NCBI GenBank assembly: GCA_964452935.1
Contig: CAYVNO010000001.1
Location: forward strand, 25,537 to 89,536
Source: an uncultured Methanosarcinales archaeon
GTDB taxonomy: Archaea; Nanobdellota; Nanobdellia; Woesearchaeales; DSVV01
Reading direction: 5' to 3'
Length of the DNA: 64,000 nucleotides
In this document: piece after piece, positions 22,242-36,504 of the stretch
How positions within the stretch are numbered: position 1 is the first letter of the stretch
How the letters are laid out: every line of letters begins with the position of its first letter
Program-made: the position numbers and the translations under genes
Notes under the pieces: model-generated
What the model was told of the DNA's origin: nothing
Seen by the model: only the letters and a program-made list of their open reading frames with translations
Database searches by the model: none

Positions 22242-25200
22242 TTATTTCTTCTTTGGTTTAATTCCTAGTTTCTTCTCTGTTTTTGCGACCGTTAGTGTTG
22301 TTTTTACAACTGAGTCGGGGTTTAATGACATGGAATGGATGCCTGCTTCAACTAAGAATTCAGCAAATTCTGGGTAATCAGAAGGGGCTTGCCCACAGAT
22401 TCCAATGTACTTGTTCATTTTATTAGCAATATGTATTACTCTTCTAATTAATGTTTTTACGGCTTGGTTTCTTTCTTCATACACATGTGCTACTAATTCA
22501 GAGTCTCTGTCTACACCTAATGTTAGTTGAGTTAGGTCGTTACTTCCTATTGAAAATCCGTCAAAATGTTCTAAGAATTCTTCTGCAAGAATTACGTTAG
22601 ATGGTATTTCACACATTAGGATGATTTTTAAGTTATCTTTTCCTTTTTCTAGTCCATTTTTTTTCATTTCTTTTAGAACTAATAACCCTTCTTCTACTGT
22701 TCTACAGAACGGAATCATTAAGACAATGTTTTTTAGTCCAAACTCTTTCATTACTTTTCTCATTGCCATACATTCTAATGCAAATGCGTCTTTGTATGCA
22801 GGAGAGTAGTATCTTGAAGCACCTCTCCAGCCAATCATTGGGTTGTCTTCAGTTGGTTCGAAATATTTCCCACCAATTAAGTTTGCATATTCGTTTGATT
22901 TAAAGTCTGATAATCTTATAATAACTTTTTTTGGATAGAATGCTGCTGCTAATGTACCTACTCCTTGTGCAAGCTTATCGACAAAGAATTGTGCTTTGTT
23001 TTTGTAGCCTTCTGTTAGTTTGTTGATCTGATTTCTGATTTTATTGTCTGTTACTTTATTGAATTCTAGTAATGCTCTAGGATGTACTTTTATATATGAA
23101 TTTATTATGAATTCTTCTCTTGCAAGGCCAACTCCTGAATTTGGTAAGAAACTGAATTCAAATGCTTCTTCAGGATTACCAATGTTCATCATTATTTCTG
23201 TTCTTGTTTCTGGAATTGATTTAAGGTTTGTTTTATGTATTTTGAATTTGAGTAATTTATCATAGATATAACCAATTTCACCTGAAGAACAGTCTGTTGT
23301 TATCTTTTGTCCTTGTTTTATTAGTTGTGTTCCATTCTCTGTCCCGACAATACATGGTACTCCAAGTTCTCTAGAGATGATTGCTGCATGACAGTTATTT
23401 ACTAATACAGGGGTTAATTTTTCTGTGAATACTGCGTAATTGTGATTATCTGCTACAGTTATGTTGTATACATCACCAAAGCTTTCTTCTTTTAAGTCTA
23501 CCATTCTGTTCATACGTAAGTCACTTTCTAATAACTCTCTTATCTTTTGTGAATTTTCTTTTTTTAGATCTTCTTCTGAGATATACAAATTTTTATCATA
23601 TCTTAATTTAGTCTGACCTCTTACTTCGTCTTTATTGAATATCTGTCTTGTAGAAAAGAATCTGCTTTTTATCACTCTATTTCTTATAACTCCCTTTATT
23701 CTTTTTGTATACTTTAATATCTTATCTAATTTCTCGACAATTTGTACATTGTGGATGTTCCTATTTTTTGTGACTTGAGGTATAATTCCAATTCTAAGAC
23801 AAGCTAACATAGTTCCTTCTAGAAGATTTCGATTTGAGATATAAATATTAATTCTATTATTATAAAATGTTCCGTCCCCATCAATTACTCCTGCTAAAAA
23901 ATTATATGCTACTTCTTCATCGCTTTGAAGAAGGGTAGTTACGATTTGATTTTTTTGTTCATGCATATTGTATGCTATGTCTTTTGAGTATAATCTAAAT
24001 GCCGTTGCTTGCCCTCTGACCTCTTTTCCTCTGATCATTCCGGTAGATATCTTTTTCTCAAAAGGAACAAAACTTTTATTGTATACTGATGTCATACAGT
24101 CTTGCATATGGTTAATGAATCTTTCTTTTTCTGGGATTTGCTTTTGAATAAATTGGACTTCTCCATGAGTTCGTGATCTGTAAATATGTCCATCCGTCAT
24201 TATTCCTCCCAATAAGTATGCTAATCTCTTATCTTTTTCAGTGGTTTGATTAATCATGGGAATATGTTGGGCAATACACACCATTTCTTTGTCGAGAAGC
24301 ATTTGTTTTATTTCTGTATCAACTAATTGTCTGTTTTTAATGTTGATCATTTTGTGATCCGGGGTAATTGTTAATGTGTTGTCCCTTATCTTTCCCCTAA
24401 TAGAAACACTTATCTTTATTTTTTTGGATTTTTTCTTCATGGATGCAATAATTGGTTTCCATTCAATTCTCTTTGTTTGTCTATTCAATGAAGGGGTTAG
24501 TAATCCATTGTATCCTTCTTCATGAACTTGTTGCATTGTCATAAATCCTTTATTTGTTAAAATTTTGGTGTTACCATCAAAACAAGTTCTTCCTCCTCTG
24601 TTTGTAACTATTGCAGAGGCTATTTTCATAATTGGTTCCCAGTCTGGATCAGTCATATCTGTCACTAGGATTTGACCTTTTTTGAAATTATTAATGTCTT
24701 TTACGTCTTTGATTATATTTGCTGGACCTTGTCCTATTTTCATTCCTACAGCTTTTCCTTTTGCAACAATTTTTCCTTTTTGTTGTAATTTGTATTCTTC
24801 TAAAGTGTTTAAGTCTCTTTGACTCTGAACTGTTTCAGGTCTTGCTTGAACTATGAATAATTTTTTTGTTTTTCCATCTTTTGCCCATTCCATATCCATT
24901 GGTTTGAAATAGTTAGCTTTTTCTGAGTAATGGTCTTCTATAATGCATGCCCATTCTGCTAATTTTAGTACTTCTTTATCTTCTAGAACGAATTTCTTTC
25001 TATCTTCTTTGTTTACTGGAATATTTTTTACTGTTTTGTTACCTTCCGAGGCATAAATCATTTTTATTTTCTTTGGACCAACTTTTTTAGAGATTATTGG
25101 TTTGAACCCTTGTTTTAATGTTGGTTTGAAAACATAGTATTCGTCTGGGTTTACTGCTCCTTGTACAACATTTTCTCCTAGACCATATGCTCCTGTTATA

Positions 25201-25880
25201 AAAACAGCATCTTTAAATCCTGTTTCAGTATCAATGGAAAACATAACTCCTGAACATGAGAGGTCTGATCTAACCATCTTTTGAACTCCTATGCTTAGTC
25301 CTATGGAAAAATGGTCGAATTTTTTATCTACTCTGTATGAGATTGCTCTGTTAGTAAATAATGATGCAAAACATTTTTTACATGCGGCAATTAAATCGTG
25401 ATCTCCTTTTATATTTAGATATGTTTCTTGTTGACCTGCAAATGATGCATCTGGTAGGTCTTCAGCAGTGGCTGATGATCTTACAGCGACATCTGTTCTT
25501 TTTCCGTATTCTTTGCATAGCTTTTTGTATGCTTTGATTATTTCTTGTTTTAGATCTTCTGGAAATTCTGCGTTCTTTATTAGCTCTCTTACACGATGTC
25601 CTTTATCTGCTAAGTCTCTCATGTCTTTTGTGTTTAATCCTTTTAGAATATTTTTTACTTCATTCCTTATTCCTGCTTTTTCTAATAGGTGATGGTATGA
25701 ATGTGCTGTGATTGCGAAACCGTTCGGAATATTTACTCCTTTTTTTGTTAGATTTCTATACATCTCTCCTAATGAAGCATTTTTTCCACCAACATGAGGA
25801 ACATCTTCAATACCTAGTTCGTTAAACCATAGAATGAACTCTTTTTCTTTGTTTTTTGGTTTTTTCTTGAATAATGCCAT
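22242..25880 (-). CDS. ppsA: Phosphoenolpyruvate synthase (pyruvate, water dikinase) interrupted by an intein
   Basis: N-terminal GGKNASLGEM...VPNGFAI is the PPDK_N ATP-grasp region. The catalytic motif TNRGGRT|CHAAIISRELGVPCIVGT is split by a 397-aa insert. The C-terminal PEP-utilizing TIM-barrel region is present. Confidence 0.9.
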   Translation of the reverse strand: MALFKKKPKNKEKEFILWFNELGIEDVPHVGGKNASLGEMYRNLTKKGVNIPNGFAITAHSYHHLLEKAGIRNEVKNILKGLNTKDMRDLADKGHRVRELIKNAEFPEDLKQEIIKAYKKLCKEYGKRTDVAVRSSATAEDLPDASFAGQQETYLNIKGDHDLIAACKKCFASLFTNRAISYRVDKKFDHFSIGLSIGVQKMVRSDLSCSGVMFSIDTETGFKDAVFITGAYGLGENVVQGAVNPDEYYVFKPTLKQGFKPIISKKVGPKKIKMIYASEGNKTVKNIPVNKEDRKKFVLEDKEVLKLAEWACIIEDHYSEKANYFKPMDMEWAKDGKTKKLFIVQARPETVQSQRDLNTLEEYKLQQKGKIVAKGKAVGMKIGQGPANIIKDVKDINNFKKGQILVTDMTDPDWEPIMKIASAIVTNRGGRTCFDGNTKILTNKGFMTMQQVHEEGYNGLLTPSLNRQTKRIEWKPIIASMKKKSKKIKISVSIRGKIRDNTLTITPDHKMINIKNRQLVDTEIKQMLLDKEMVCIAQHIPMINQTTEKDKRLAYLLGGIMTDGHIYRSRTHGEVQFIQKQIPEKERFINHMQDCMTSVYNKSFVPFEKKISTGMIRGKEVRGQATAFRLYSKDIAYNMHEQKNQIVTTLLQSDEEVAYNFLAGVIDGDGTFYNNRINIYISNRNLLEGTMLACLRIGIIPQVTKNRNIHNVQIVEKLDKILKYTKRIKGVIRNRVIKSRFFSTRQIFNKDEVRGQTKLRYDKNLYISEEDLKKENSQKIRELLESDLRMNRMVDLKEESFGDVYNITVADNHNYAVFTEKLTPVLVNNCHAAIISRELGVPCIVGTENGTQLIKQGQKITTDCSSGEIGYIYDKLLKFKIHKTNLKSIPETRTEIMMNIGNPEEAFEFSFLPNSGVGLAREEFIINSYIKVHPRALLEFNKVTDNKIRNQINKLTEGYKNKAQFFVDKLAQGVGTLAAAFYPKKVIIRLSDFKSNEYANLIGGKYFEPTEDNPMIGWRGASRYYSPAYKDAFALECMAMRKVMKEFGLKNIVLMIPFCRTVEEGLLVLKEMKKNGLEKGKDNLKIILMCEIPSNVILAEEFLEHFDGFSIGSNDLTQLTLGVDRDSELVAHVYEERNQAVKTLIRRVIHIANKMNKYIGICGQAPSDYPEFAEFLVEAGIHSMSLNPDSVVKTTLTVAKTEKKLGIKPKKK
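23394..24584 (-). mobile_element. Intein (397 aa) with a LAGLIDADG homing-endonuclease domain, inserted at the GGRT/CHAAI catalytic-His motif of PpsA
   Basis: It begins with CFDGNTKILT (Cys1, block A). LAGLIDADG-like YLLGGIMTDGHI and FLAGVIDGDGTF blocks are present. It ends ...VLVNN, followed by the extein Cys (CHAAI). Its in-frame excision restores the canonical PpsA motif. Confidence 0.85.
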
Positions 25881-25930
25881 GTGTTGGTTTATATGTTGGG
25901 GAGTATATAAAGATTTGTTATTATTGTAGA

Positions 25931-26911
25931 ATGGGTATGCAAAGGATTATATATCATTTATGGGTGTTTTGTTGTATGGTGTTTATATTAGAACTTTCAA
26001 AAGAAGATTTAGAATTATCTGTTTATGAGGCGAGGAGATTATTGGGTGTTAAGGGGAAGTTAGTTGAGAATTTATTATTAGTTGAAGATGTTGATGTTGA
26101 TTTGGTTAAAAGGTTGGCGTATGTAAATAATTTATATGAACTTGTTGTTCAATGTGATATGAAGGATTTTGAGAAGAGTTTGAAAGGTTTAGGAAAGTTT
26201 TATGAGAAAAGTTATTGTGTTAGGAAGATTGGTGATGGGTTAAGCGAGAAAGAGATTGGGTCTTTGTTCTGGGATAGGTTAGTTGAGGTCGGTTTGAAAC
26301 CTAAAGTTGACTTGTTTAAACCAAAGACGTTATTTGTTTGCATTTTTTTTAAGAATAATGTTATTGTTGGTAAATTAATATGGGGTAATGAGAAAGAATT
26401 CTTGAATAGGAAAGCTCATAAAAGGCCTGCTTTACATCCGAGTTCGTTAAATCCTAGGTTAGCTAAAGCAATGGTTAATATTTCTGCGAAGAATAACATC
26501 TGTGATCCTTTTTGTGGTTCAGGAGGAATTTTAATAGAGGCAGGGTTAATGGGGTTAAAGGTTGAGGGTTGCGATATCAATAGATTTATGATTAATGCTT
26601 GTGAAAAGAATTTGAAACATTTTGGTGTTAAATGTAAGTTAATGAGAAAGGATGCCCTGAAATTAATTGGTAAATTCGGAGCAATTGTTACTGATTTACC
26701 TTATGCAAAGAATACAAAGAATGTTGATTTGGATAAGTTGTATAAAGAGTTTTTTAAGAATGTTTATAGTTTAACTGATGTTATTGTTGTAGGTTTGCCT
26801 GATTTTGTTTCTTTGAAAGGTTTATTATATAGGTGGAAAGTTAAGAAGAAGTTTGTTTATTATTTGCATAAGAGTTTGAGTAAGGTTATTCTTGTTTTAG
26901 AGAAGAGTTAG
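25931..26911 (+). CDS. THUMP-domain tRNA (guanine-N2)-methyltransferase, Trm11/Trm14-like
   Basis: RPALHPSSLNPRLAKAMVNIS...DPFCGSGGILIEAGLMG is the SAM-binding motif of Trm11-type MTases. The ORF-track start at 25874 would overlap ppsA, so a later start near 25931-25976 is more likely. Confidence 0.6.
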   Translation: MGMQRIIYHLWVFCCMVFILELSKEDLELSVYEARRLLGVKGKLVENLLLVEDVDVDLVKRLAYVNNLYELVVQCDMKDFEKSLKGLGKFYEKSYCVRKIGDGLSEKEIGSLFWDRLVEVGLKPKVDLFKPKTLFVCIFFKNNVIVGKLIWGNEKEFLNRKAHKRPALHPSSLNPRLAKAMVNISAKNNICDPFCGSGGILIEAGLMGLKVEGCDINRFMINACEKNLKHFGVKCKLMRKDALKLIGKFGAIVTDLPYAKNTKNVDLDKLYKEFFKNVYSLTDVIVVGLPDFVSLKGLLYRWKVKKKFVYYLHKSLSKVILVLEKS

Positions 26912-27360
26912 TGGCAAGCGTATGGGTGGAGTTGTCTGATTATAGGTTCATCTTTTATTTTTATTGGGTATTTCTCCATAAGGTGGTTAAATTTGAATCC
27001 TCTATGTTCTGATCTGAATTTTCTAAATTCCCTACTTACGCTGTATTTTAATTCATGTTCTTGATGATCTTCTGCAGCTTTTCCTTTCCACTGAATTGGT
27101 CCGTTAGGTCTATCAAACCTTTCTCTTGATTTGTAGTTCGGGACTTCTTTTTTTATTGTTCTTATTAACATGTCTGCAACTATGTAATTTCCACTTGCGT
27201 CAGCATAACATGTTGCAAGATATAGAAAATCTGCGTAGATGGTTGAGTTTGGAAGATCTTGTTTTGTTTCTAACGCTTTATTTACTAATCTTTCAATGTT
27301 AGGTTCATCTCTTTTTCTCACTGTTCTTTCTGCTGTTTGTAGAATTTGTTTTAGTACCAT
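26908..27360 (-). CDS. Hypothetical protein (150 aa), with R/D/E-rich composition unlike the neighbouring genes
   Basis: No recognisable motif was found. The gene is higher in GC and part of a three-gene block of atypical composition. Confidence 0.35.
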   Translation of the reverse strand: MVLKQILQTAERTVRKRDEPNIERLVNKALETKQDLPNSTIYADFLYLATCYADASGNYIVADMLIRTIKKEVPNYKSRERFDRPNGPIQWKGKAAEDHQEHELKYSVSREFRKFRSEHRGFKFNHLMEKYPIKIKDEPIIRQLHPYACH

Positions 27361-27363
27361 CTT

Positions 27364-27987
27364 TTATTTTTTCATGTATTGTCTAAAAGCTGTTAACATT
27401 TCATTATCTTCTTTTATTGGTGGGTTAATATGTAGTCCGGAGTTATTGTTTTCTGGTGTTGTAGGTTTTTTGGAATTATAAGTTCCAGGAGCAGGGCAGA
27501 GTTTTACATCTCCTTGCATTGGATCTATTCCAAGAAGGTTTTCTCTATATCCGTCTCTGTCTAATTCTGCTGTTCTATCTATGTACTTATCATCTTTTGT
27601 TGAAACTCTTGGTGTGAGTATTAATGTGTCGGTTGCTAAGAATGCTTCAAAATATAATCCATTTTCTCCAACTTCAAATAAGTAGGTCGAGGTAAATATA
27701 TCCATGTCTTTGCCTGATCCAGAGGTTCTTCTGTATTTATAATCTGCTAGTTGTCCAGGAATTAATGAATCTGCTAGTGCAGCAACATTTGTTCTTGTAT
27801 CTTCGTCAGTTGTTAGTAATTCTAGTTGTTGGTCTAATGGAAGATCATTGAATCTGCCAATTAGTTCTTTCTCACTTCCTTCTGTTAGTAGTCCAGCTAG
27901 TCTTTCAGCCATATCATCCAAAGGGATTTGATATGTGGCTGTGCTAGTTGTTTCTATTCCTTGGTATTTTGTTACAGTTATACGCAT
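27364..27987 (-). CDS. Hypothetical protein (~207 aa)
   Basis: No recognisable motif was found. Composition is atypical for the region. The start is taken at MRITVTKYQ. Confidence 0.35.
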   Translation of the reverse strand: MRITVTKYQGIETTSTATYQIPLDDMAERLAGLLTEGSEKELIGRFNDLPLDQQLELLTTDEDTRTNVAALADSLIPGQLADYKYRRTSGSGKDMDIFTSTYLFEVGENGLYFEAFLATDTLILTPRVSTKDDKYIDRTAELDRDGYRENLLGIDPMQGDVKLCPAPGTYNSKKPTTPENNNSGLHINPPIKEDNEMLTAFRQYMKK

Positions 27988-28105
27988 TTTTATCAATTTG
28001 AAGGTAATCAAATGGGGTTTATAATACTAATTGTTATATCTATTATTTTCTATATAGAAAATAATAACAATAATATTTTTAAGGAGGTGTTTATTCCTTT
28101 CAAGA

Positions 28106-29161
28106 ATGCCAAGAAGATATGGAACAGGAGACGGAATAAGAGGAAGAGGAGGAAGATTTAGTGGAGATTTTTCTAGTAGAGGCGGTACTCAAGCAAGATT
28201 AGAAGAGCTTGCAGATAGGACTACGGCTGCACATAATCCTAGAAATAAGTCTAGACAGGTTCCTGAACCAATCACTGTTCATGAGTATGGTGGAATTGGA
28301 GAGCTTAGGGAATTAACTAAGAATGATTGTTATCCTGTTTATAATCATGTAGTTAAACAAGGTCTTCAACCTAGTAATGCTCTTGGAAGGGCTGTTACAT
28401 GTTTTATGGTTAATATGTTTTTGAATTTGCCAGGAGATGATTATTCTAGAAGAAGATATTCAAATAATGATAGAAGGGCTATGAGAGAACAGTTTGATAT
28501 TTTCCGTGAGGGTTTAATGGGGTTAGAGATTCTTTTTGGAGAAAGAAGTAATCTAGGTATTGGCGGATTTAAGAAAATTACTAATTGGTATGAACATGTT
28601 GATTATTTGGTTGAGAATGTAGATCTTTATTCAGTGTCTAGATCTGATATTGTTTATGTTAATGTTCCTCCTCAGGGACGTTTTTCAAATAGAGAGGAGA
28701 AAGCGCTTGAGGCAGTGTTTACAGGGTATAGAGATGAACAAGAACCTCATTTAAGAGTTCTCAAAGAAAATGCTAGTGAGGCGTTACTTCAACTTATGTT
28801 GAATCCAGAATTAAATGATCTTGAATCATATATTGATTCTATTGGTGAATATGATTTTAGTAATGAAAATGGAGGAGTAGAGGAAGCTGTTGATGCGATT
28901 ACCCCTCTTTTGAGATTATTTGATCAAATGGAGAAAGGGCAAGAACTTACAGCTGTTGAAGATTTCAAGGAGAGATATGGGGCAATGTTGCAAAAATATC
29001 CTGATCAACAAGGTTTAATATCATTGATGTCACAGGCGGTTGCTGAGGACGGTGTGTTAATAACTGAAGGAGCAGATGTAACAGAGATTCCTAACTTTAG
29101 GTTAGTTATGAGTTACAGAGATTGCTGTATGTATCAAAGAGTTAATCCAACTTCTCAATAA
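28106..29161 (+). CDS. Hypothetical protein with an N-terminal RGG/Gly-Arg-rich box
   Basis: The N-terminus MPRRYGTGDGIRGRGGRFSGDFSSRGGTQ is an RGG-type low-complexity region. The rest of the protein has no recognised motif, and the gene is higher in GC. Confidence 0.4.
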   Translation: MPRRYGTGDGIRGRGGRFSGDFSSRGGTQARLEELADRTTAAHNPRNKSRQVPEPITVHEYGGIGELRELTKNDCYPVYNHVVKQGLQPSNALGRAVTCFMVNMFLNLPGDDYSRRRYSNNDRRAMREQFDIFREGLMGLEILFGERSNLGIGGFKKITNWYEHVDYLVENVDLYSVSRSDIVYVNVPPQGRFSNREEKALEAVFTGYRDEQEPHLRVLKENASEALLQLMLNPELNDLESYIDSIGEYDFSNENGGVEEAVDAITPLLRLFDQMEKGQELTAVEDFKERYGAMLQKYPDQQGLISLMSQAVAEDGVLITEGADVTEIPNFRLVMSYRDCCMYQRVNPTSQ

Positions 29162-30878
29162 ATTTCTTAGTTGTTTCTAAAGCCATGTCAACTTCTTCTC
29201 GAGTTGGTTTGTGGAATGCTCTTAAGAATTTGTTTCTCATTGTGTGTATTTTCCTGATTTCTTCGTCATGCGGAAGATCTTTTTCTTGGCCTAGTATATT
29301 TGCTAGTCTATTGAAGTCAAGGTTTTTATCTTCTTCTCCAAATCTCTTTTTGTATTGTTCTTTTAGAGCGTAGTAGATAGCTAGATCGCAGTTAACTAGA
29401 ACGCTGCCTGAGTTTAACAATCCTTTTGCGTCCTCTTCTGTCTGTCCTGTTTTCTGACTTAGGATTGCAGCAGTTAATGCTGTTGGGTTTAGTTCAGTTG
29501 TTTCTTCTTCTGTATCCTCTTCTTCTGAAGTGTCTTGGTTGAATAATGATAGTAATTCGTTTGTGTTTTCTGGAAGGTTTACTTTTATCTCTTGTTTTGG
29601 TTCAGTTACTGGTGCTTCTTCAGCTGTAACTGGTTCTTGTGTTTGTTCTAGTTGTTCTGTTGTTTCTTCTTCTGCTTCTATTGGTTGTACTTCTTGTGTT
29701 TCTTCAGCTTGAATTGATTCTTGTTCTTTTGTTTCTATTATTGGTTGTTCTGTAGATTCTTCTGCTGTTAATGGTTGTTCTTCTTTTACTTCCAACTCTT
29801 CTTTTTCATCCCAATAATCAATTATTGGTGTTTCTTCGGTTGTTGATTCTTGTTTTTCTTCAACAGCTGTTTCCTCTTTGACTTCTTCTTCAACTTGTTC
29901 AACCTTTTCTTCATCCATGCCTAGAATATCTTGTGATTGTAGAACATAATATTGGTCATTTGATATTGCGAACTCTATAAATTGAGGTCTTCCGAATAAT
30001 CTCTCTATTCTTTTGCAATGTAATGCAATATCCATTATCTGTCTTTCATTTAATTTTTGTTCTGCAGCTTTTTTTGGCGGAATAATTGATTTTTTTGTTT
30101 TGAATTTATATTTATCTAATTCAAAAAGGAAATCTTGTTTTTTTATGTCTGTATCATCTATGGCTAGTGTATCTTTGTTTAGTGTGTATCTGTCAGGCAT
30201 TATGTTCCCGCTTGTTATTGCACATCCTAATCCTTTGCATGCAACAATTAGTATTTGTTCATGATTTGTTGGGTTTGTAGAATATGCTGCTCCAGATAGG
30301 TGAGAGTTGACCATGTTTTGGACTATTACAGCCATTGATGAATCTTGAATATTATTTTTCATTCTGTGTTCAATAGCTTTTGCTGTATAGAATGATGCCC
30401 AACATGCTTGTAGTGCATTTAATAATCTTTTATTTCCTTCAATGTTTAGGAAGTTTAGGTGCATCTTTGAGTAATCTTCATACCCACATGTGCTAGCTCT
30501 AACTGCTACTAATGGTCCTTTCTTTGAGTTAAGCATCTGGTTTAATTTAGTTGTATCTTCAATTAGACAGTTATAGTTTTCTAGAATTTCTTCTTGTATT
30601 GGATCTGGAAGTATTCCATTTACAATTAATTTTTGGATACCATTAGCAACATTTTGTAGGTTTTCTTTGTCTTCAAGTTTTATAGAAGATAATAAATTTC
30701 TTATTCTTATGTCTATTCCAGTATGTTTTAAGAATTTATCAAATGATTGTTTTTTAATAACAAATCCAATAGGTACTGAGAATCTATTGCATAAGGCTGC
30801 TAACCTTACTGACTTTTCCCCGACTTCGTGTATGTCATCCTTTGTTATATTTTTGAGCATTAATAAACTACTTTGCAT
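29142..30878 (-). CDS. Stand-alone PEP-synthase/PPDK N-terminal (ATP-grasp nucleotide-binding) domain protein with a long acidic E/T/Q-rich linker and a small C-terminal helical domain
   Basis: N-terminal VGEKSVRLAALCN...VPIGFVI...VAVRASTCGYEDYS parallels PpsA GGKNASLGEM...VPNGFAI...VAVRSSATAEDLP. The swivel-His and PEP-binding domains are absent. There is a ~170-aa acidic low-complexity middle and a C-terminal ...EEIRKIHTMRNKFLRAFH segment. Confidence 0.5.
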   Translation of the reverse strand: MQSSLLMLKNITKDDIHEVGEKSVRLAALCNRFSVPIGFVIKKQSFDKFLKHTGIDIRIRNLLSSIKLEDKENLQNVANGIQKLIVNGILPDPIQEEILENYNCLIEDTTKLNQMLNSKKGPLVAVRASTCGYEDYSKMHLNFLNIEGNKRLLNALQACWASFYTAKAIEHRMKNNIQDSSMAVIVQNMVNSHLSGAAYSTNPTNHEQILIVACKGLGCAITSGNIMPDRYTLNKDTLAIDDTDIKKQDFLFELDKYKFKTKKSIIPPKKAAEQKLNERQIMDIALHCKRIERLFGRPQFIEFAISNDQYYVLQSQDILGMDEEKVEQVEEEVKEETAVEEKQESTTEETPIIDYWDEKEELEVKEEQPLTAEESTEQPIIETKEQESIQAEETQEVQPIEAEEETTEQLEQTQEPVTAEEAPVTEPKQEIKVNLPENTNELLSLFNQDTSEEEDTEEETTELNPTALTAAILSQKTGQTEEDAKGLLNSGSVLVNCDLAIYYALKEQYKKRFGEEDKNLDFNRLANILGQEKDLPHDEEIRKIHTMRNKFLRAFHKPTREEVDMALETTKKFIEKLD

Positions 30879-30935
30879 GGTATCACCCTTTTGATACTCT
30901 TGTTTCTGTACTAAGATAAAAGATATATAAATGTT

Positions 30936-31700
30936 TTGATAATACTTATATACTACTTTGACTCTACTTTTGAGTATATGAAAAATAAGGTGTTGAGAGA
31001 TCTGAATGAGTTGATAAGGCAGGTAGAGAATATGCCTCCTGAGTTGGTTACTGGTAAGTATGACCCTTATGATTATAAGGCTCAGAAGTTAGCTGTTTAT
31101 AAAAGGGATGTTGATAAAATGTTATCTAATGTGAAGATGGATATTTTTAAGTTGTGTTTAGAATCTCTAAATAATAGAAATGAGGGAGTGATTTTTGATA
31201 TTATTATTAATTTAAAGAATCTCAATGTTGATAAGGAAAAGTTGATTAGTTTGAAAGAAGCTGTTGGTTTATTGAATTATGTTAAGGTTGCAAAGCCAAG
31301 AGAGCTGGAGTTAAAGATTCCTGTGGGGATTCCTACAGATATTAGAGATGATATTGTTGCAGATATGAAAGAGTTACAGAAATCTTATAATTCTACTTGT
31401 TATAGGGCGGCTGTTATTTTATGTGGTAGGGTGTTAGAGACTGCTTTACATAGAAAGTATTATGACACAACTGGTTTTGATATTTTGGAGAAGAATCCTG
31501 GGATTGGGTTAGGTAAGTTAATTGCAAAGTTAGATGAGAAGAATGTAAAGTTTGATCCAGGATTAACACAACAAATACATTTGATAAATCAGGTTAGAAT
31601 TTATTCTGTGCATAGGAAGAAAGAGGTGTTTTATCCTTCATCTGCACAATGCTATGCAATGATTTTGTATACAATGGATGTTTTGGGTAAGATGTTTTAG
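30936..31700 (+). CDS. Hypothetical protein with a C-terminal HEPN-like (Rx4H) motif
   Basis: The C-terminus ...QIHLINQVRIYSVHRKKE contains R-x4-H in a predicted helical region. The start is possibly at MKNKVL (30978). The gene is divergently arranged with the PPDK_N paralog. Confidence 0.3.
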   Translation: MIILIYYFDSTFEYMKNKVLRDLNELIRQVENMPPELVTGKYDPYDYKAQKLAVYKRDVDKMLSNVKMDIFKLCLESLNNRNEGVIFDIIINLKNLNVDKEKLISLKEAVGLLNYVKVAKPRELELKIPVGIPTDIRDDIVADMKELQKSYNSTCYRAAVILCGRVLETALHRKYYDTTGFDILEKNPGIGLGKLIAKLDEKNVKFDPGLTQQIHLINQVRIYSVHRKKEVFYPSSAQCYAMILYTMDVLGKMF

Positions 31701-31735: not shown

Positions 31736-32158
31736 ATGAAGGCGAAATACTATGCATTAATCGGATTTGTCCTTGCTGTTGTTTTTTACTATTTATCTTC
31801 AATTATTTCTTCGATGTTTGATATTTTTAATTCTGTCCGTTATGTTCTTGGAAGCATTTATCCGTTAACATTCTTGGTTGTTTTGTTTCTATTGCTCCCT
31901 TTACTTCTGCTTCTTAGTAAGAATAAGATATGTTCTATTTTAAGTATAATTTCTGGATCTTTATTAATAACTGGTTTTGGTTTAGTCTTGTTTAAATTAG
32001 TTTTTACTGTTTCAAGAAGGTTGTTGGGCTATTCACCTTATACTTCAAATGCTTTTGAAGTTGTTTTATCCCTGTTGTTACTTGGAGTTTTTATTGTTTC
32101 TGGAGTCTTGTATATCATCGCAGGTATTAAAGCCTTGAAAGAAGGGAAGGAAGAGTAA
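31736..32158 (+). CDS. Hypothetical small membrane protein (4 TM)
   Basis: The protein is hydrophobic with multi-TM composition. Confidence 0.4.
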   Translation: MKAKYYALIGFVLAVVFYYLSSIISSMFDIFNSVRYVLGSIYPLTFLVVLFLLLPLLLLLSKNKICSILSIISGSLLITGFGLVLFKLVFTVSRRLLGYSPYTSNAFEVVLSLLLLGVFIVSGVLYIIAGIKALKEGKEE

Positions 32159-32253: not shown

Positions 32254-32874
32254 ATGATAGGATACTTTTATATCCTAATGACAAATAAAAATATAATACA
32301 ATGGATTGTGAAGAATGAAGATTTAGTAGTGCCAACTTTATTTAAACCAGTGCAATTTAGGATTATTAAGAAGCTTTCAAAGAATAAAAAGTTAACAGAG
32401 AATGAAAAAAGATATTTAAGAGGTAAGATGAAAGATAAGTTTAATGTTTTGCAGGAGTTAATGAAGGTTAATGTAATGAGAGATGAATTTAGAGTATTAG
32501 TTGATAATATTGGATCCTATTATGTGACTGGTTTAGAGGCTTTAAAACATAATGGTTATGGTTGGTATTTTGAACCAAAGATTGTGGAAGTAATAAATAC
32601 TAAGATTGAGGGAAGGTTTGTTGTTAATAATAAAACTGTTAAATTTATAAGAGTTAAATCAATATCAAAAAGTAAAACAAAGATTGATAAAAAATCCGGG
32701 ATTATATATGCAACAAATGAGCAAATATTAAAAGATATAGTATTCACTAAAAACAATTATACAGAATCTGTTTGGATGCAGATGTTTTCAAGATATGGGA
32801 TGATGTTTGCAAAAGGATTTAAGGAGTTATTGTCTAAAAAGAGCAAAATTAATTATGCACTTTATGGGGTTTGA
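32254..32874 (+). CDS. AbiEi-like antitoxin (type IV TA / abortive infection AbiE system)
   Basis: YYVTGLEALKHNGYGWY resembles the conserved AbiEi wHTH region. The gene overlaps the downstream AbiEii gene by 4 nt (ATGA). The start may be at 32281. Confidence 0.5.
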   Translation: MIGYFYILMTNKNIIQWIVKNEDLVVPTLFKPVQFRIIKKLSKNKKLTENEKRYLRGKMKDKFNVLQELMKVNVMRDEFRVLVDNIGSYYVTGLEALKHNGYGWYFEPKIVEVINTKIEGRFVVNNKTVKFIRVKSISKSKTKIDKKSGIIYATNEQILKDIVFTKNNYTESVWMQMFSRYGMMFAKGFKELLSKKSKINYALYGV

Positions 32875-33572
32875 GAATGACAAAGATTTTGGATGTTTTA
32901 AGAAAGTTTCTTAAAGAGGTGGAAAATGATAATCCATTTAATTTAGTTTTAAAAGGAGGAACTGCTTTAGCTATTTATTATTTGAATGATCATAGGGAAT
33001 CTGAGGATCTGGACTTTGATGTTGATAAGTCGTTGATTAAAAAACATGAAGAGATAATTGGTTATTTTGTTAATGTTTTGGGAATTTTAAAACAAAAACA
33101 AATTATCAATAATTTCAGGATAACAAAACAGGGTTTTGCTTCTACAGACAGATACCACATTAAACTTGAGATTGAGACATATAAAACCTTTTATACAAAA
33201 ATTGATGTGGACTTTGTTGATTTACCAAAGAAGTTAGTCAATAAAGATAATCTTTTCCTATATTCCTCTGAAAGAATCTTTGTTACAAAGGCCATCACTT
33301 TTATTAGTAGAAAAGAGTTCAAGGATTTATATGATTTGTTCTATTTGGTTGGGAAGATTGATGTTAGGAAGTTTAAGAATAAAGAGAATGTTGTTAAATT
33401 GATTGAGGAAGTAATAGCAGTTGCTAATGAAGAGGATATTCTTAAGCTTTATAGATCTGCTTTTAGAAATGTCGATATGAAATTTAAGAATTTAAAAGAG
33501 TCGCAGTTGGATTCTTTTCTTAGGACAATTATAAGGAAACTTAGGGTTTTGATAAATAAATTGAAGAAATGA
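32871..33572 (+). CDS. AbiEii/AbiGii-family nucleotidyltransferase toxin (DUF1814)
   Basis: LKGGTALAIYYLNDHRESEDLDFDV matches the GGTAL ... R-x-S-x-D-x-D nucleotidyltransferase signature of AbiEii. Confidence 0.7.
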   Translation: MRMTKILDVLRKFLKEVENDNPFNLVLKGGTALAIYYLNDHRESEDLDFDVDKSLIKKHEEIIGYFVNVLGILKQKQIINNFRITKQGFASTDRYHIKLEIETYKTFYTKIDVDFVDLPKKLVNKDNLFLYSSERIFVTKAITFISRKEFKDLYDLFYLVGKIDVRKFKNKENVVKLIEEVIAVANEEDILKLYRSAFRNVDMKFKNLKESQLDSFLRTIIRKLRVLINKLKK

Positions 33573-35161: not shown

Positions 35162-35292
35162 TAGTCGTAAGGGAATAATTCCTCTTTAAATATCTATCGG
35201 TTGGGAATATTCCTATCGGAATATTTTATTCAAGAAGTGTTTAAAAGGAGGTGTGAGTTTTTGTAGTAAATCATACTTGGAGGTTGATTATA

Positions 35293-36504
35293 ATGAAACA
35301 AAGTAAGTATTTTTTTACATCAGAGAGTGTATCTGCTGGACATCCTGATAAGTTATGCGATCATATTAGTGACGCTGTTTTGGATGCAATATATACAAAA
35401 GATCCTAATGCTAGGGTTGCTGTTGAATGTTTAACAAAGACAGGATTTGTTGTTGTTGCTGGGGAGGTAACTACGACTGCATGGGTAGATATCCAGAATA
35501 TTACAAGGAATACAATCAAAGAGATTGGTTATGATAAGCCAGAGTATGGTTTTGATGGGAACACATGTGGTGTTTTAGTATCATTATCTGAACAGAGTCC
35601 TGATATTTCTCAAGGGGTTACTGAAGGAGAAGGTGCATTCAAAGAACAAGGTGCAGGAGATCAAGGCTTGATGTTTGGTTATGCAACAAATGAGACACCT
35701 GAATTTATGCCACTACCAATTATCATGGCACATAAGTTATTGAAAGAGCTTGATAGAATTAGGAGGGCTAATGAGTTAACTTATCTAAGGCCGGATGCAA
35801 AGTCTCAAGTAACTGTTGAATATGAGAATGGGGAAGCAAAAAGGATTGATGCTGTTGTTATTTCAACACAACATGATCCGGATGCAACACATGAACAAAT
35901 CATGTCGGATGTAGTTGAAAAGGTTATAAAACCTGTTTGTGGTCAATGGTTAGATGAGAATACAAAGTTCTTTGTTAATCCAACTGGAAAATTTGTAGTT
36001 GGTGGACCTGTAGCAGATGCAGGTTTAACAGGAAGAAAAATCATTGTTGATACATATGGTGGACATGGAAGTCACGGTGGTGGATGTTTTTCAGGGAAAG
36101 ATCCTTCGAAAGTGGATAGGTCTGCTGCTTATATGGGTAGGTATATTGCAAAGAATATTGTTGCTTCAGGTTTAGCAGATAAGTGTGAAGTACAGCTTGC
36201 ATATGCAATTGGTGTTGCAGAACCTGTTTCTGTTCTAACACATTGCTTTGATACGAATAAAGTTCCAGAAGAAAAGATCTCAGAGTTAGTTAGGAAACAT
36301 TTCCCTCTAACACCTGCTGCGATAATTAATCATCTGAATCTTAGAAGACCAATCTATAAGAAAACAGCAGCATATGGTCATTTTGGAAGAGATGATCCTG
36401 ACTTTACATGGGAAAAGACAGATAAGGCAGATGTTTTGAAGCAGGATGCCGGTTCTTTGGGTGAACCAGAGAAATCTGGAGATCAAGTACCTTTAGATGC
36501 ATAA
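35293..36504 (+). CDS. metK: S-adenosylmethionine synthetase, bacterial/eukaryotic MetK type (not archaeal MAT)
   Basis: [40 protein letters not shown] and the rest of the three-domain MetK signature are present. The start is taken at MKQSKYFF. Confidence 0.9.

Follow-up and report, generated by a model that had tools for sequence, protein, structure and literature searches.

A family of PpsA-derived, probably non-dikinase ATP-grasp proteins in Woesearchaeota-type archaea

We analysed a 64,000-nucleotide stretch of contig CAYVNO010000001.1 (hereafter the window; AT-rich, ~32% G+C), for which the names of homologs suggest a Woesearchaeota-type DPANN archaeon. Our subject was a gene for a 578-residue protein that contains the ATP-grasp domain (PPDK_N) of phosphoenolpyruvate (PEP) synthase, PpsA, and that lies divergent to a gene for a HEPN-type protein. 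Judged from its sequence, the 578-residue protein is clearly derived from PpsA. It represents a probably non-dikinase ATP-grasp family in which the PEP synthase N-domain is joined through a long polyanionic linker to a small helical end domain, and as far as we found this family is unnamed and undescribed. Nothing points to defence, the frame in which an initial annotation, made from the letters of the window alone, had placed the paralog and its divergent neighbour, and we do not consider the paralog part of a defence or toxin system. The gene and its parts are as follows.

29142..30878, minus strand: PpsA-derived paralog gene of 578 residues (PPDK_N, acidic linker, putatively HEPN-like end domain), from the list of open reading frames; stop codon at 29142-29144
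29919..30878, minus strand: ATP-grasp (PPDK_N) domain of the paralog, residues 1-320, from alignments and the table of sites
29421..29918, minus strand: polyanionic linker of the paralog, residues 321-486 (166 residues), from composition
29145..29420, minus strand: C-terminal four-helix domain of the paralog, residues 487-578, family-defining, from phmmer and AlphaFold2 (AF2)

The protein corresponds exactly to database entry P0001. Pfam placed PPDK_N at residues 18-336, covering positions 3-327 of the 328 in the profile with an E-value of 2.7e-56, and the initial reading of a PPDK_N-only paralog of 578 residues, which a profile search ought to recognise, was borne out. No Pfam match to PEP-utilizers (the swivel-His domain, PF00391) or to PEP-utilizers_C (the PEP/pyruvate-binding domain, PF02896) was found in the 578 residues, as had been foreseen for the swivel and PEP-binding domains. 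The NCBIfam models for PpsA, rifampin phosphotransferase (RPH) and PigC matched within the first ~320-340 residues only, and all scored far under their cut-offs: PRK06464 reached 188.7 bits against a cut-off of 598, TIGR01418 179.5 bits against 739.75, and NF041857 (RIF_Ptrans_rph) 138.6 bits against 999 (E 2.5e-40, residues 5-319 only). Where an automatic annotation reads 'phosphoenolpyruvate synthase' or 'PEP/pyruvate-binding protein', PEP synthase activity should not be concluded from it. The parallel once drawn to truncated PPDK_N domains in antibiotic kinases is not supported either: RPH keeps its swivel-His domain (PMC4844700).

The N-domain of the paralog is 61% identical over 321 residues to that of its ortholog P0002 and about 27-35% identical to the N-domains of DPANN PpsA proteins. 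Its identity to the PpsA encoded in the window is 27% over 249 residues, and because this lies so far below the value for P0002 we rejected the idea that the paralog is a recent copy of the neighbouring gene. Over its full length the paralog is 46% identical to P0002, as against 72% for the N-terminal part of PpsA, 69% for the radical SAM protein and 57% for the methyltransferase in the same pair of genomes. For the N-domains alone, the 61% of the paralog compares with the 72% of PpsA. By these comparisons the paralog evolves somewhat faster than its neighbours, yet clearly under constraint.

The protein is not an orphan. When the end domain was searched with phmmer against 1.84 billion representative sequences, 35 proteins were recovered. 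The match was always C-terminal in full-length proteins (468-877 residues), and the shorter matches were apparent fragments of the same genes; the family thus comprises about 35 clusters at 50% identity with one architecture. Among 30 members scanned, PPDK_N was recognised in 28, a swivel or PEP-binding domain in none; where a full N-domain is missing, the protein mostly resembles an N-terminally truncated fragment. Those that carry a name are called 'hypothetical protein [Candidatus Woesearchaeota archaeon]'. A metagenome scan with the clade alignment gave two additional paralog loci, one of which (L093) duplicates L089 while the other (L094) is a locus like that of P0003. Only the exhaustive phmmer run, queried with the end domain, revealed the family: a word-indexed homolog search behaved erratically, returning 47 matches, mostly PpsA, for the full-length query and three matches for the N-domain alone, with P0002 and P0003 missed. 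One 830-residue protein in the 90% cluster of the window paralog (P0204, on a 5-kb ENA contig) joins an RND-transporter-like N-terminus to paralog residues ~83-578; it is most likely a chimeric assembly and not a true fusion, and was set aside. Two other PPDK_N-only proteins of DPANN archaea, P0041 (510 residues, in L006) and P0168 (470 residues), have long Glu/Lys-rich tails with the end domain incomplete or absent, and P0041 lacks the equivalents of E323 and Q335. PpsA derivatives that are truncated and charged-tailed may be spread more widely than the 35-cluster family.

We mapped the sites PPDK K22, R92, D321, E323, Q335 and R337, together with RPH T136, onto the family and tabulated 26 members.

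PPDK K22: K22 in the window protein, kept in 22/26
PPDK R92: R127 in the window protein, kept in 20/26
PPDK E323: E302 in the window protein, kept in 16/26
PPDK Q335: Q314 in the window protein, kept in 11/26
PPDK R337: Q316 in the window protein (lost), kept in 2/26
PPDK D321: F300 in the window protein (lost), kept in 1/26

The equivalent of RPH T136 in the window protein is N142. In RPH, the source for the roles of K22 and of R117 and T136, mutation of K22 or of R117 (the counterpart of PPDK R92) cripples the enzyme and E297A is tolerated (PMC4844700). The pattern of kept and lost residues fits a protein in which the binding of nucleotide phosphates would be retained and the chemistry that loads the histidine lost. 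In one sub-clade (P0176, P0181, P0182 and P0201) even K22 or R92 has been lost while the end domain is kept, which speaks against catalysis as the function that the members have in common.

The linker, announced as a ~170-residue Glu/Thr/Gln-rich segment, proved to be 166 residues long with 31% E, 14% T and 9% Q and a net charge of -46, and it is probably disordered. Across the family its length varies from 59 to 482 residues (median 178), with a median D+E content of 30%, a median K+R content of 7% and no conserved sequence. It is nevertheless net negative in 30/30 members, and since acidity has been kept throughout while the sequence has not, the polyanionic character is a selected trait.

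The small helical end domain was confirmed as a domain of four helices, predicted by AF2 from a 30-sequence alignment with a pLDDT (the confidence score of the prediction) of 94. Its consensus reads ...VxCDMAI..LK.KY...F...IP.E.EI..I..LRN.FLE...EV..AL..T..FL.EF. Pfam HEPN (PF05168) matched it at E 0.01, or at 0.001 when the domain was searched in isolation, with 16.5-19.6 bits against a cut-off of 22. Among the family end domains, PF05168 was matched at E<1 in 3/30 and HEPN_Swt1 in 2/30, all below threshold. A Foldseek search of the PDB gave nothing significant, and its top marginal matches were HEPN-MNT toxins, the HEPN domain of Csm6 and small archaeal HEPN proteins, with TM-scores of about 0.5; a sequence-profile search of the PDB with the end domain returned noise only (E >= 0.097). 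In helix 3 the pair 'RN' is common, and the histidine position of an Rx4-6H motif is taken across the family by E, N, R, K or D; the window protein has MRNKFLRAF (RNKFLR) there and no catalytic His. Because the HEPN matches are sub-threshold, the structural matches marginal, 'RN' kept and the His replaced, we call the end domain HEPN-like but non-catalytic, with moderate confidence in the assignment of the fold. A profile-profile comparison between this end domain and the helical domain of the divergent neighbour was weak (probability 16%), and we do not claim a specific relationship between the two.

The genes that surround the paralog were compared in 12 lineages (the window, L001, L005/L094, L006, L087, L088, L089/L093, L090, L092, L097, L098 and L099). 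Two of its neighbours in the window matter most.

22242..25880, minus strand: full-length PEP synthase PpsA (PPDK_N, swivel and PEP-binding domains) with a LAGLIDADG intein, from Pfam
25874..26911, plus strand: UPF0020 (RMKL-like) methyltransferase, from Pfam (UPF0020, 3.9e-23)

PpsA lies 3.3 kb from the paralog, in agreement with the 3 kb first given. A search of the window by tblastn with PpsA-like proteins located swivel matches only at 23256-23423 and 24585-24731, both inside PpsA, and besides PpsA no separate swivel-domain (PEP-utilizers) gene was found in the 64-kb window or in the 12 lineage contexts. The intein, with its LAGLIDADG homing-endonuclease domain, is inserted in the swivel-domain region; the 814-residue ortholog of L001 is intein-free, and an intein is also present in the eRF1 of L097.

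Of the genes around the paralog family, the methyltransferase is conserved most consistently. It stands tail-to-tail with the paralog in 8/12 lineages (the window, L001, L005/L094, L087, L090, L092, L097 and L099), often with 3' ends that overlap or lie <=40 bp apart (L005, L087, L092, L097 and L099). One to three open reading frames intervene in the window, L001, L090 and L094, the number in the window being three. Paralogs in these methyltransferase-linked lineages are only about 30-47% identical. The tail-to-tail arrangement may have been conserved because the two genes are functionally linked, for instance by antisense coupling or through a common pathway, or may reflect just slow rearrangement. 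A cluster of L37ae, prefoldin, UPF0147 and eRF1 adjoins the paralog in L088, L097 and L098; MscS lies near it in L089, L090 and L097, and PfkB in L006 and L088. The setting of the paralog is vertical housekeeping synteny, unlike a mobile or defence island.

The three intervening frames of the window, at 26908-29161, encode proteins of 150 residues (minus strand), 215 residues (minus strand) and 351 residues (plus strand, with an RGG-rich N-terminus), none with a Pfam or NCBIfam match. The 351-residue frame shares 20 bp with the 3' end of the paralog. At the same spot L001 has a different, unrelated-looking frame of 294 residues with a HExxH-like motif (HEIFH), and insertions at this site vary within a block whose synteny is otherwise kept.

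Taking these results together, we favour, tentatively and with slightly less than even confidence, a reading in which the paralog would be a nucleotide-binding, non-dikinase regulator or scaffold that acts on a housekeeping partner through its end domain and acidic tether. The family, whose named members so far all come from Woesearchaeota-type DPANN archaea, would be vertically inherited and have arisen long ago from PEP synthase. In its history the ATP-grasp domain at the N-terminus would have been retained, the phospho-His swivel and the PEP/pyruvate domains would have disappeared, and the polyanionic linker and the non-catalytic HEPN-like end domain would have been added. Since the equivalents of K22 and R92 are conserved, binding of a nucleotide, or of its phosphates, by the ATP-grasp pocket probably persists; the dikinase reaction is presumably no longer run, as the protein has no His carrier and the equivalents of D321 and R337 are lost. 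The protein could then act in a nucleotide-dependent manner as a regulator or scaffold. Its end domain would allow it to dimerise or to bind a partner, and the acidic linker would serve as a tether or as a mimic for basic partners. A more specific form of this proposal, which we regard as doubtful, is that PPDK_N, polyanionic linker and degenerate HEPN domain together make up an undescribed class of PpsA-derived pseudo-dikinases in Woesearchaeota. These proteins would respond to the adenylate or energy state by way of the retained phosphate-binding pocket and signal, through the end domain and tether, to a housekeeping partner, for example PpsA or the tRNA-modification and translation machinery encoded nearby.

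Several points weigh against a regulator or scaffold. The role is reached by exclusion, a literature search returned no paper on the family, and the survey of neighbourhoods was small, with many short contigs among the 12 lineages. The clade of the window protein (P0001, P0002, P0003 and P0190) keeps K22, R92, E323 and Q335, which would suit residual catalysis. One member, P0187, retains every tabulated canonical residue, including a T at the position of RPH T136, and has a PpsA-like SATAEDLP..SFAGQ loop; on its sequence it looks like an intermediate form. The alignment columns near Q335 and R337 are less certain in the divergent members, and the argument from D321 and R337 presupposes the roles assigned to these residues in PPDK.

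The main rival, unlikely in our estimation, is that the paralog is the ATP-grasp subunit of a split dikinase and phosphorylates in trans the swivel-His of PpsA or of an unlinked partner. In the known two-component dikinases the genes of the two subunits are adjacent to each other. That a PPDK_N subunit can stand alone and work in trans is established for HpeI, CreI and PpsB (PMC12167813). Such a role would be compatible with the residues kept in the clade of the window protein and with full-length PpsA belonging, both in the window and in L001, to one syntenic block with the paralog. The known systems need a swivel partner, however, and besides PpsA the window and the 12 contexts hold no PEP-utilizers gene, while PpsA owns an intact N-domain of its own. 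Moreover, R337 is lost in 24/26 members and D321 in 25/26, and several members are also without K22, R92 or E323.

Quite improbable, in our judgement, is a direct kinase or ligase activity of the ATP-grasp protein, exerted without a His relay on a new substrate, be it a small molecule, a protein or RNA, perhaps in tRNA modification. The adjacency of the UPF0020 methyltransferase in 8/12 lineages speaks for it, as do the PfkB kinase upstream in two lineages and the HEPN-like end domain, a fold often used for binding RNA or nucleotides (PMC3710099). The methyltransferase is convergent, though, and hence not co-transcribed with the paralog; the whole block is conserved housekeeping synteny, in which adjacency may reflect slow rearrangement alone. 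The characterised PPDK_N enzymes that we reviewed all use a His carrier (PMC4844700, PMC12167813), and the catalytic residues drift across the family.

That the paralog is a decaying, functionless relic of a PpsA duplication is very improbable. Degenerate catalytic residues in many members and the faster evolution of the paralog (46% identity against 57-72% for its neighbours in the same two genomes) would agree with decay, but the reading frames are intact in about 35 clusters at 50% identity, the N-domains of the orthologs remain 61% identical, and the end domain is conserved and folds confidently. The acidity of the linker has also been kept in 30/30 members, and the syntenic position has been held across members that are only about 30% identical.

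The remaining alternative is that the paralog forms a conflict module with the divergent neighbour, with which the initial annotation had paired it. The features on that side of the paralog are these.

30879..30977, no strand: divergent intergenic region of 99 bp, AT-rich, read from the sequence
~30917-30930 and ~30947-30954: TATA-like elements AAGATATATAAATG and TTATATAC, respectively; candidate promoter elements by sequence
30978..31700, plus strand: DUF4145-type HEPN gene of 240 residues, from homologs and alignment; the mechanically called frame is 30936..31700, from a TTG at 30936
31353-31697, plus strand: HEPN domain of this neighbour, residues ~126-240
31596-31598 and 31611-31613, plus strand: R207 and H212 of the Rx4H motif RIYSVH, both invariant in 29 aligned homologs

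The true start of the neighbour is most likely the ATG at 30978, and the 240-residue protein read from it is identical to database protein P0048. The initial annotation had this gene end in an Rx4H motif: the motif is there and invariant (R207 to H212), but it stands 28 residues before the C-terminus and not at the very end. A check with HEPN profiles likewise stood in part: the neighbour is a DUF4145-type HEPN protein, and the weak PF05168 match sits in the end domain of the paralog itself. DUF4145 is a HEPN family (PMC3710099). On the neighbour itself Pfam DUF4145 (PF13643) stays sub-threshold (19.3-19.4 bits against a cut-off of 23.1), and it is matched at E<0.01 in 25/29 members of the neighbour's family (best 1.5e-7); for several database homologs PF13643 has been assigned by precomputation, or NCBI uses the name 'DUF4145 domain-containing protein'. 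The AF2 model of the neighbour (pLDDT 89) superposes in its C-terminal half on 2hsb (TMt 0.71, root-mean-square deviation 2.6 over 118, probability 1.0), and other HEPN structures (3o10, 1ufb and 1wol) were matched with probabilities of 0.96-0.99; the Foldseek E-values are about 0.5-1.

The family of the neighbour is large, with >1000 database clusters at E <= 0.001 and 264 confirmed matches in GTDB species genomes. Pairwise identity among 29 diverse members averages 70% in the C-terminal 115 residues and 21% in the N-terminal half. The C-terminal domains of the window and L001 proteins are about 90% identical to each other, above the PpsA of the same genomes. The commonest neighbour at 82 of its loci is archaeal Nre (Nre_N and Nre_C), which lies upstream on the same strand within one to four genes in 23/82 loci and directly upstream in 13. 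Further neighbours, judged by sequence, are genes resembling alanyl-, phenylalanyl-, glycyl- and tryptophanyl-tRNA synthetases, a DHH/DHHA1 protein and a DRG-type GTPase. The pattern suggests a family of core HEPN RNases with a housekeeping role, and not of toxins, in Woesearchaeota and Nanoarchaeota.

The divergent pair was found only in this genome and in its closest relative, that of P0002. Within flanks of up to 8 kb, the paralog was present at 1/80 GTDB loci of the HEPN family, and that locus (L007) is the P0002 genome; conversely, the HEPN gene is not near the paralog in 10/12 lineages, and in two metagenome-assembled genomes, JAFGRM01 (L016, L092) and CAYMIF01 (L010, L099), the two genes are on separate contigs. 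The functional pairing first implied is not upheld by these counts. Only the nearest relative has the pairing too, and chance in the local order of genes accounts for it best. The order of genes in the window is already disturbed relative to L001, by a transmembrane protein and a gene pair on one side and by the three frames at 26908-29161 on the other. What was found comes close to the conserved housekeeping pair that the initial annotation had named as contrary to its reading: both genes stand among housekeeping genes in relatives, but they are not conserved as a pair.

Searches of PADLOC (PADLOC-DB v2, E<=0.1) and PHROGs gave no match for the paralog or the HEPN neighbour, and nothing for the three unannotated frames at 26908-29161. 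The sole PADLOC match in the scan was an AbiEii gene at 32871-33572, unrelated to the pair. In the literature we found no paper that joins PPDK_N and HEPN, and the papers that combine PPDK_N with 'defense' are unrelated to prokaryotic defence. With no PADLOC or PHROG match and housekeeping contexts on both sides, the defence framing was dropped.

A two-gene defence or toxin-antitoxin module in which the paralog would control a divergent HEPN RNase is thus barely credible, and the neighbourhood survey has already largely refuted it: the shared 99-bp AT-rich divergent region, the pairing kept in the closest relative, the AbiEii gene 1.2 kb downstream, the HEPN-type helical domains in both proteins and the fact that a DUF4145 HEPN protein can be a defence RNase, as RAZR is (PMC13017515), are set against the absence of the paralog at 79/80 HEPN-family loci, the lack of a nearby HEPN gene in 10/12 paralog lineages, the separate contigs in two metagenome-assembled genomes, a HEPN domain that averages 70% pairwise identity across its family and is more conserved than PpsA between the two syntenic genomes, which is unlike fast-evolving toxins, usual neighbours such as Nre and tRNA synthetases with no PADLOC matches, and a weak profile-profile match of the helical domains (probability 16%).

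Further observations concern the remainder of the window. The AbiEii-type nucleotidyltransferase gene (Pfam 1.8e-20; PADLOC AbiEii 4.8e-17) is overlapped by 4 bp by a frame of 206 residues that has no family match (together 32254-33572, plus strand), and the two probably form an AbiE-like toxin-antitoxin pair. This pair and a 140-residue frame with multiple transmembrane segments (31736-32158) are inserted between the HEPN and radical SAM genes, relative to L001. An S-adenosylmethionine synthetase gene (35284-36504, plus strand) encodes the three domains of the bacterial/eukaryotic MetK type (S-AdoMet_synt_N, M and C; E 1e-43 to 1e-67) and not an archaeal MAT, which suggests horizontal acquisition of a MetK-type gene in this DPANN lineage. 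Rfam and tRNA scans detected no RNA genes in the window.

If the reading of the paralog as a non-dikinase regulator or scaffold is true, a dikinase domain of central metabolism would have been recycled, in DPANN archaea with reduced genomes, into a module that is either non-catalytic or catalytic in a different way. Each gene retained in such genomes is informative on how these symbionts regulate a minimal metabolism. In practical terms, the PPDK_N/HEPN defence pair is removed as a false lead, and the conserved DUF4145-type HEPN family may be more interesting than the paralog itself.

We finally compared the two proteins with known systems. With PpsA and PPDK (PF01326) the paralog shares the full-length PPDK_N fold and the equivalents of K22, R92, E323 and Q335; it differs in having no swivel-His domain and no PEP/pyruvate TIM barrel, in scoring far under the equivalog cut-offs, in having lost the equivalents of D321 and R337, and in having gained the acidic linker and helical end domain. 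The nearest known precedents are HpeI, CreI and PpsB (phenylphosphate synthase), which are stand-alone ATP-grasp subunits of ~40 kDa in two-component dikinases of bacterial aromatic catabolism and need a partner subunit with swivel and substrate-binding domains (PMC12167813). Like them, the paralog is a stand-alone PPDK_N polypeptide without a His carrier of its own. It is set apart from their description by the lack of a partner in 12 contexts, by partly degenerate residues and by ~260 extra residues. RPH (PMC4844700) has a homologous ATP-grasp domain within a three-domain protein (ATP-grasp, RIF-binding, and a swivel with an essential His), whereas the paralog has neither a substrate-binding nor a swivel domain.

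For the end domain, whose HEPN assignment is only marginal, the closest parallel is with the non-catalytic HEPN-like domains of CL0291 (KNTase_C and the C-terminal domains of GlnD and GlnE; PMC3710099), which are likewise small up-down bundles with 'RN' on helix 3, lack the catalytic His and are attached to a nucleotide-using enzyme domain. Those domains, however, pack directly on a polymerase-beta-type nucleotidyltransferase, while in the paralog the partner is an ATP-grasp domain across 59-482 residues of acidic linker. The comparison with RAZR (PMC13017515) applies to the neighbouring gene only: the neighbour resembles it in that its family matches DUF4145, its Rx4H is invariant and its C-terminal half has a HEPN fold, but RAZR has an N-terminal zinc finger and a role in phage defence, whereas the archaeal family has a variable helical N-terminal half, is strongly conserved, lies near Nre and tRNA synthetase genes and has no PADLOC match. 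Measured against these systems, the paralog falls outside PpsA and RPH and, with no partner gene in the window or the 12 contexts, probably outside the two-component dikinase subunits. Its end domain lies outside HEPN by both motif and score. The protein is best placed in an ATP-grasp family that derives from PpsA and probably does not consist of dikinases.

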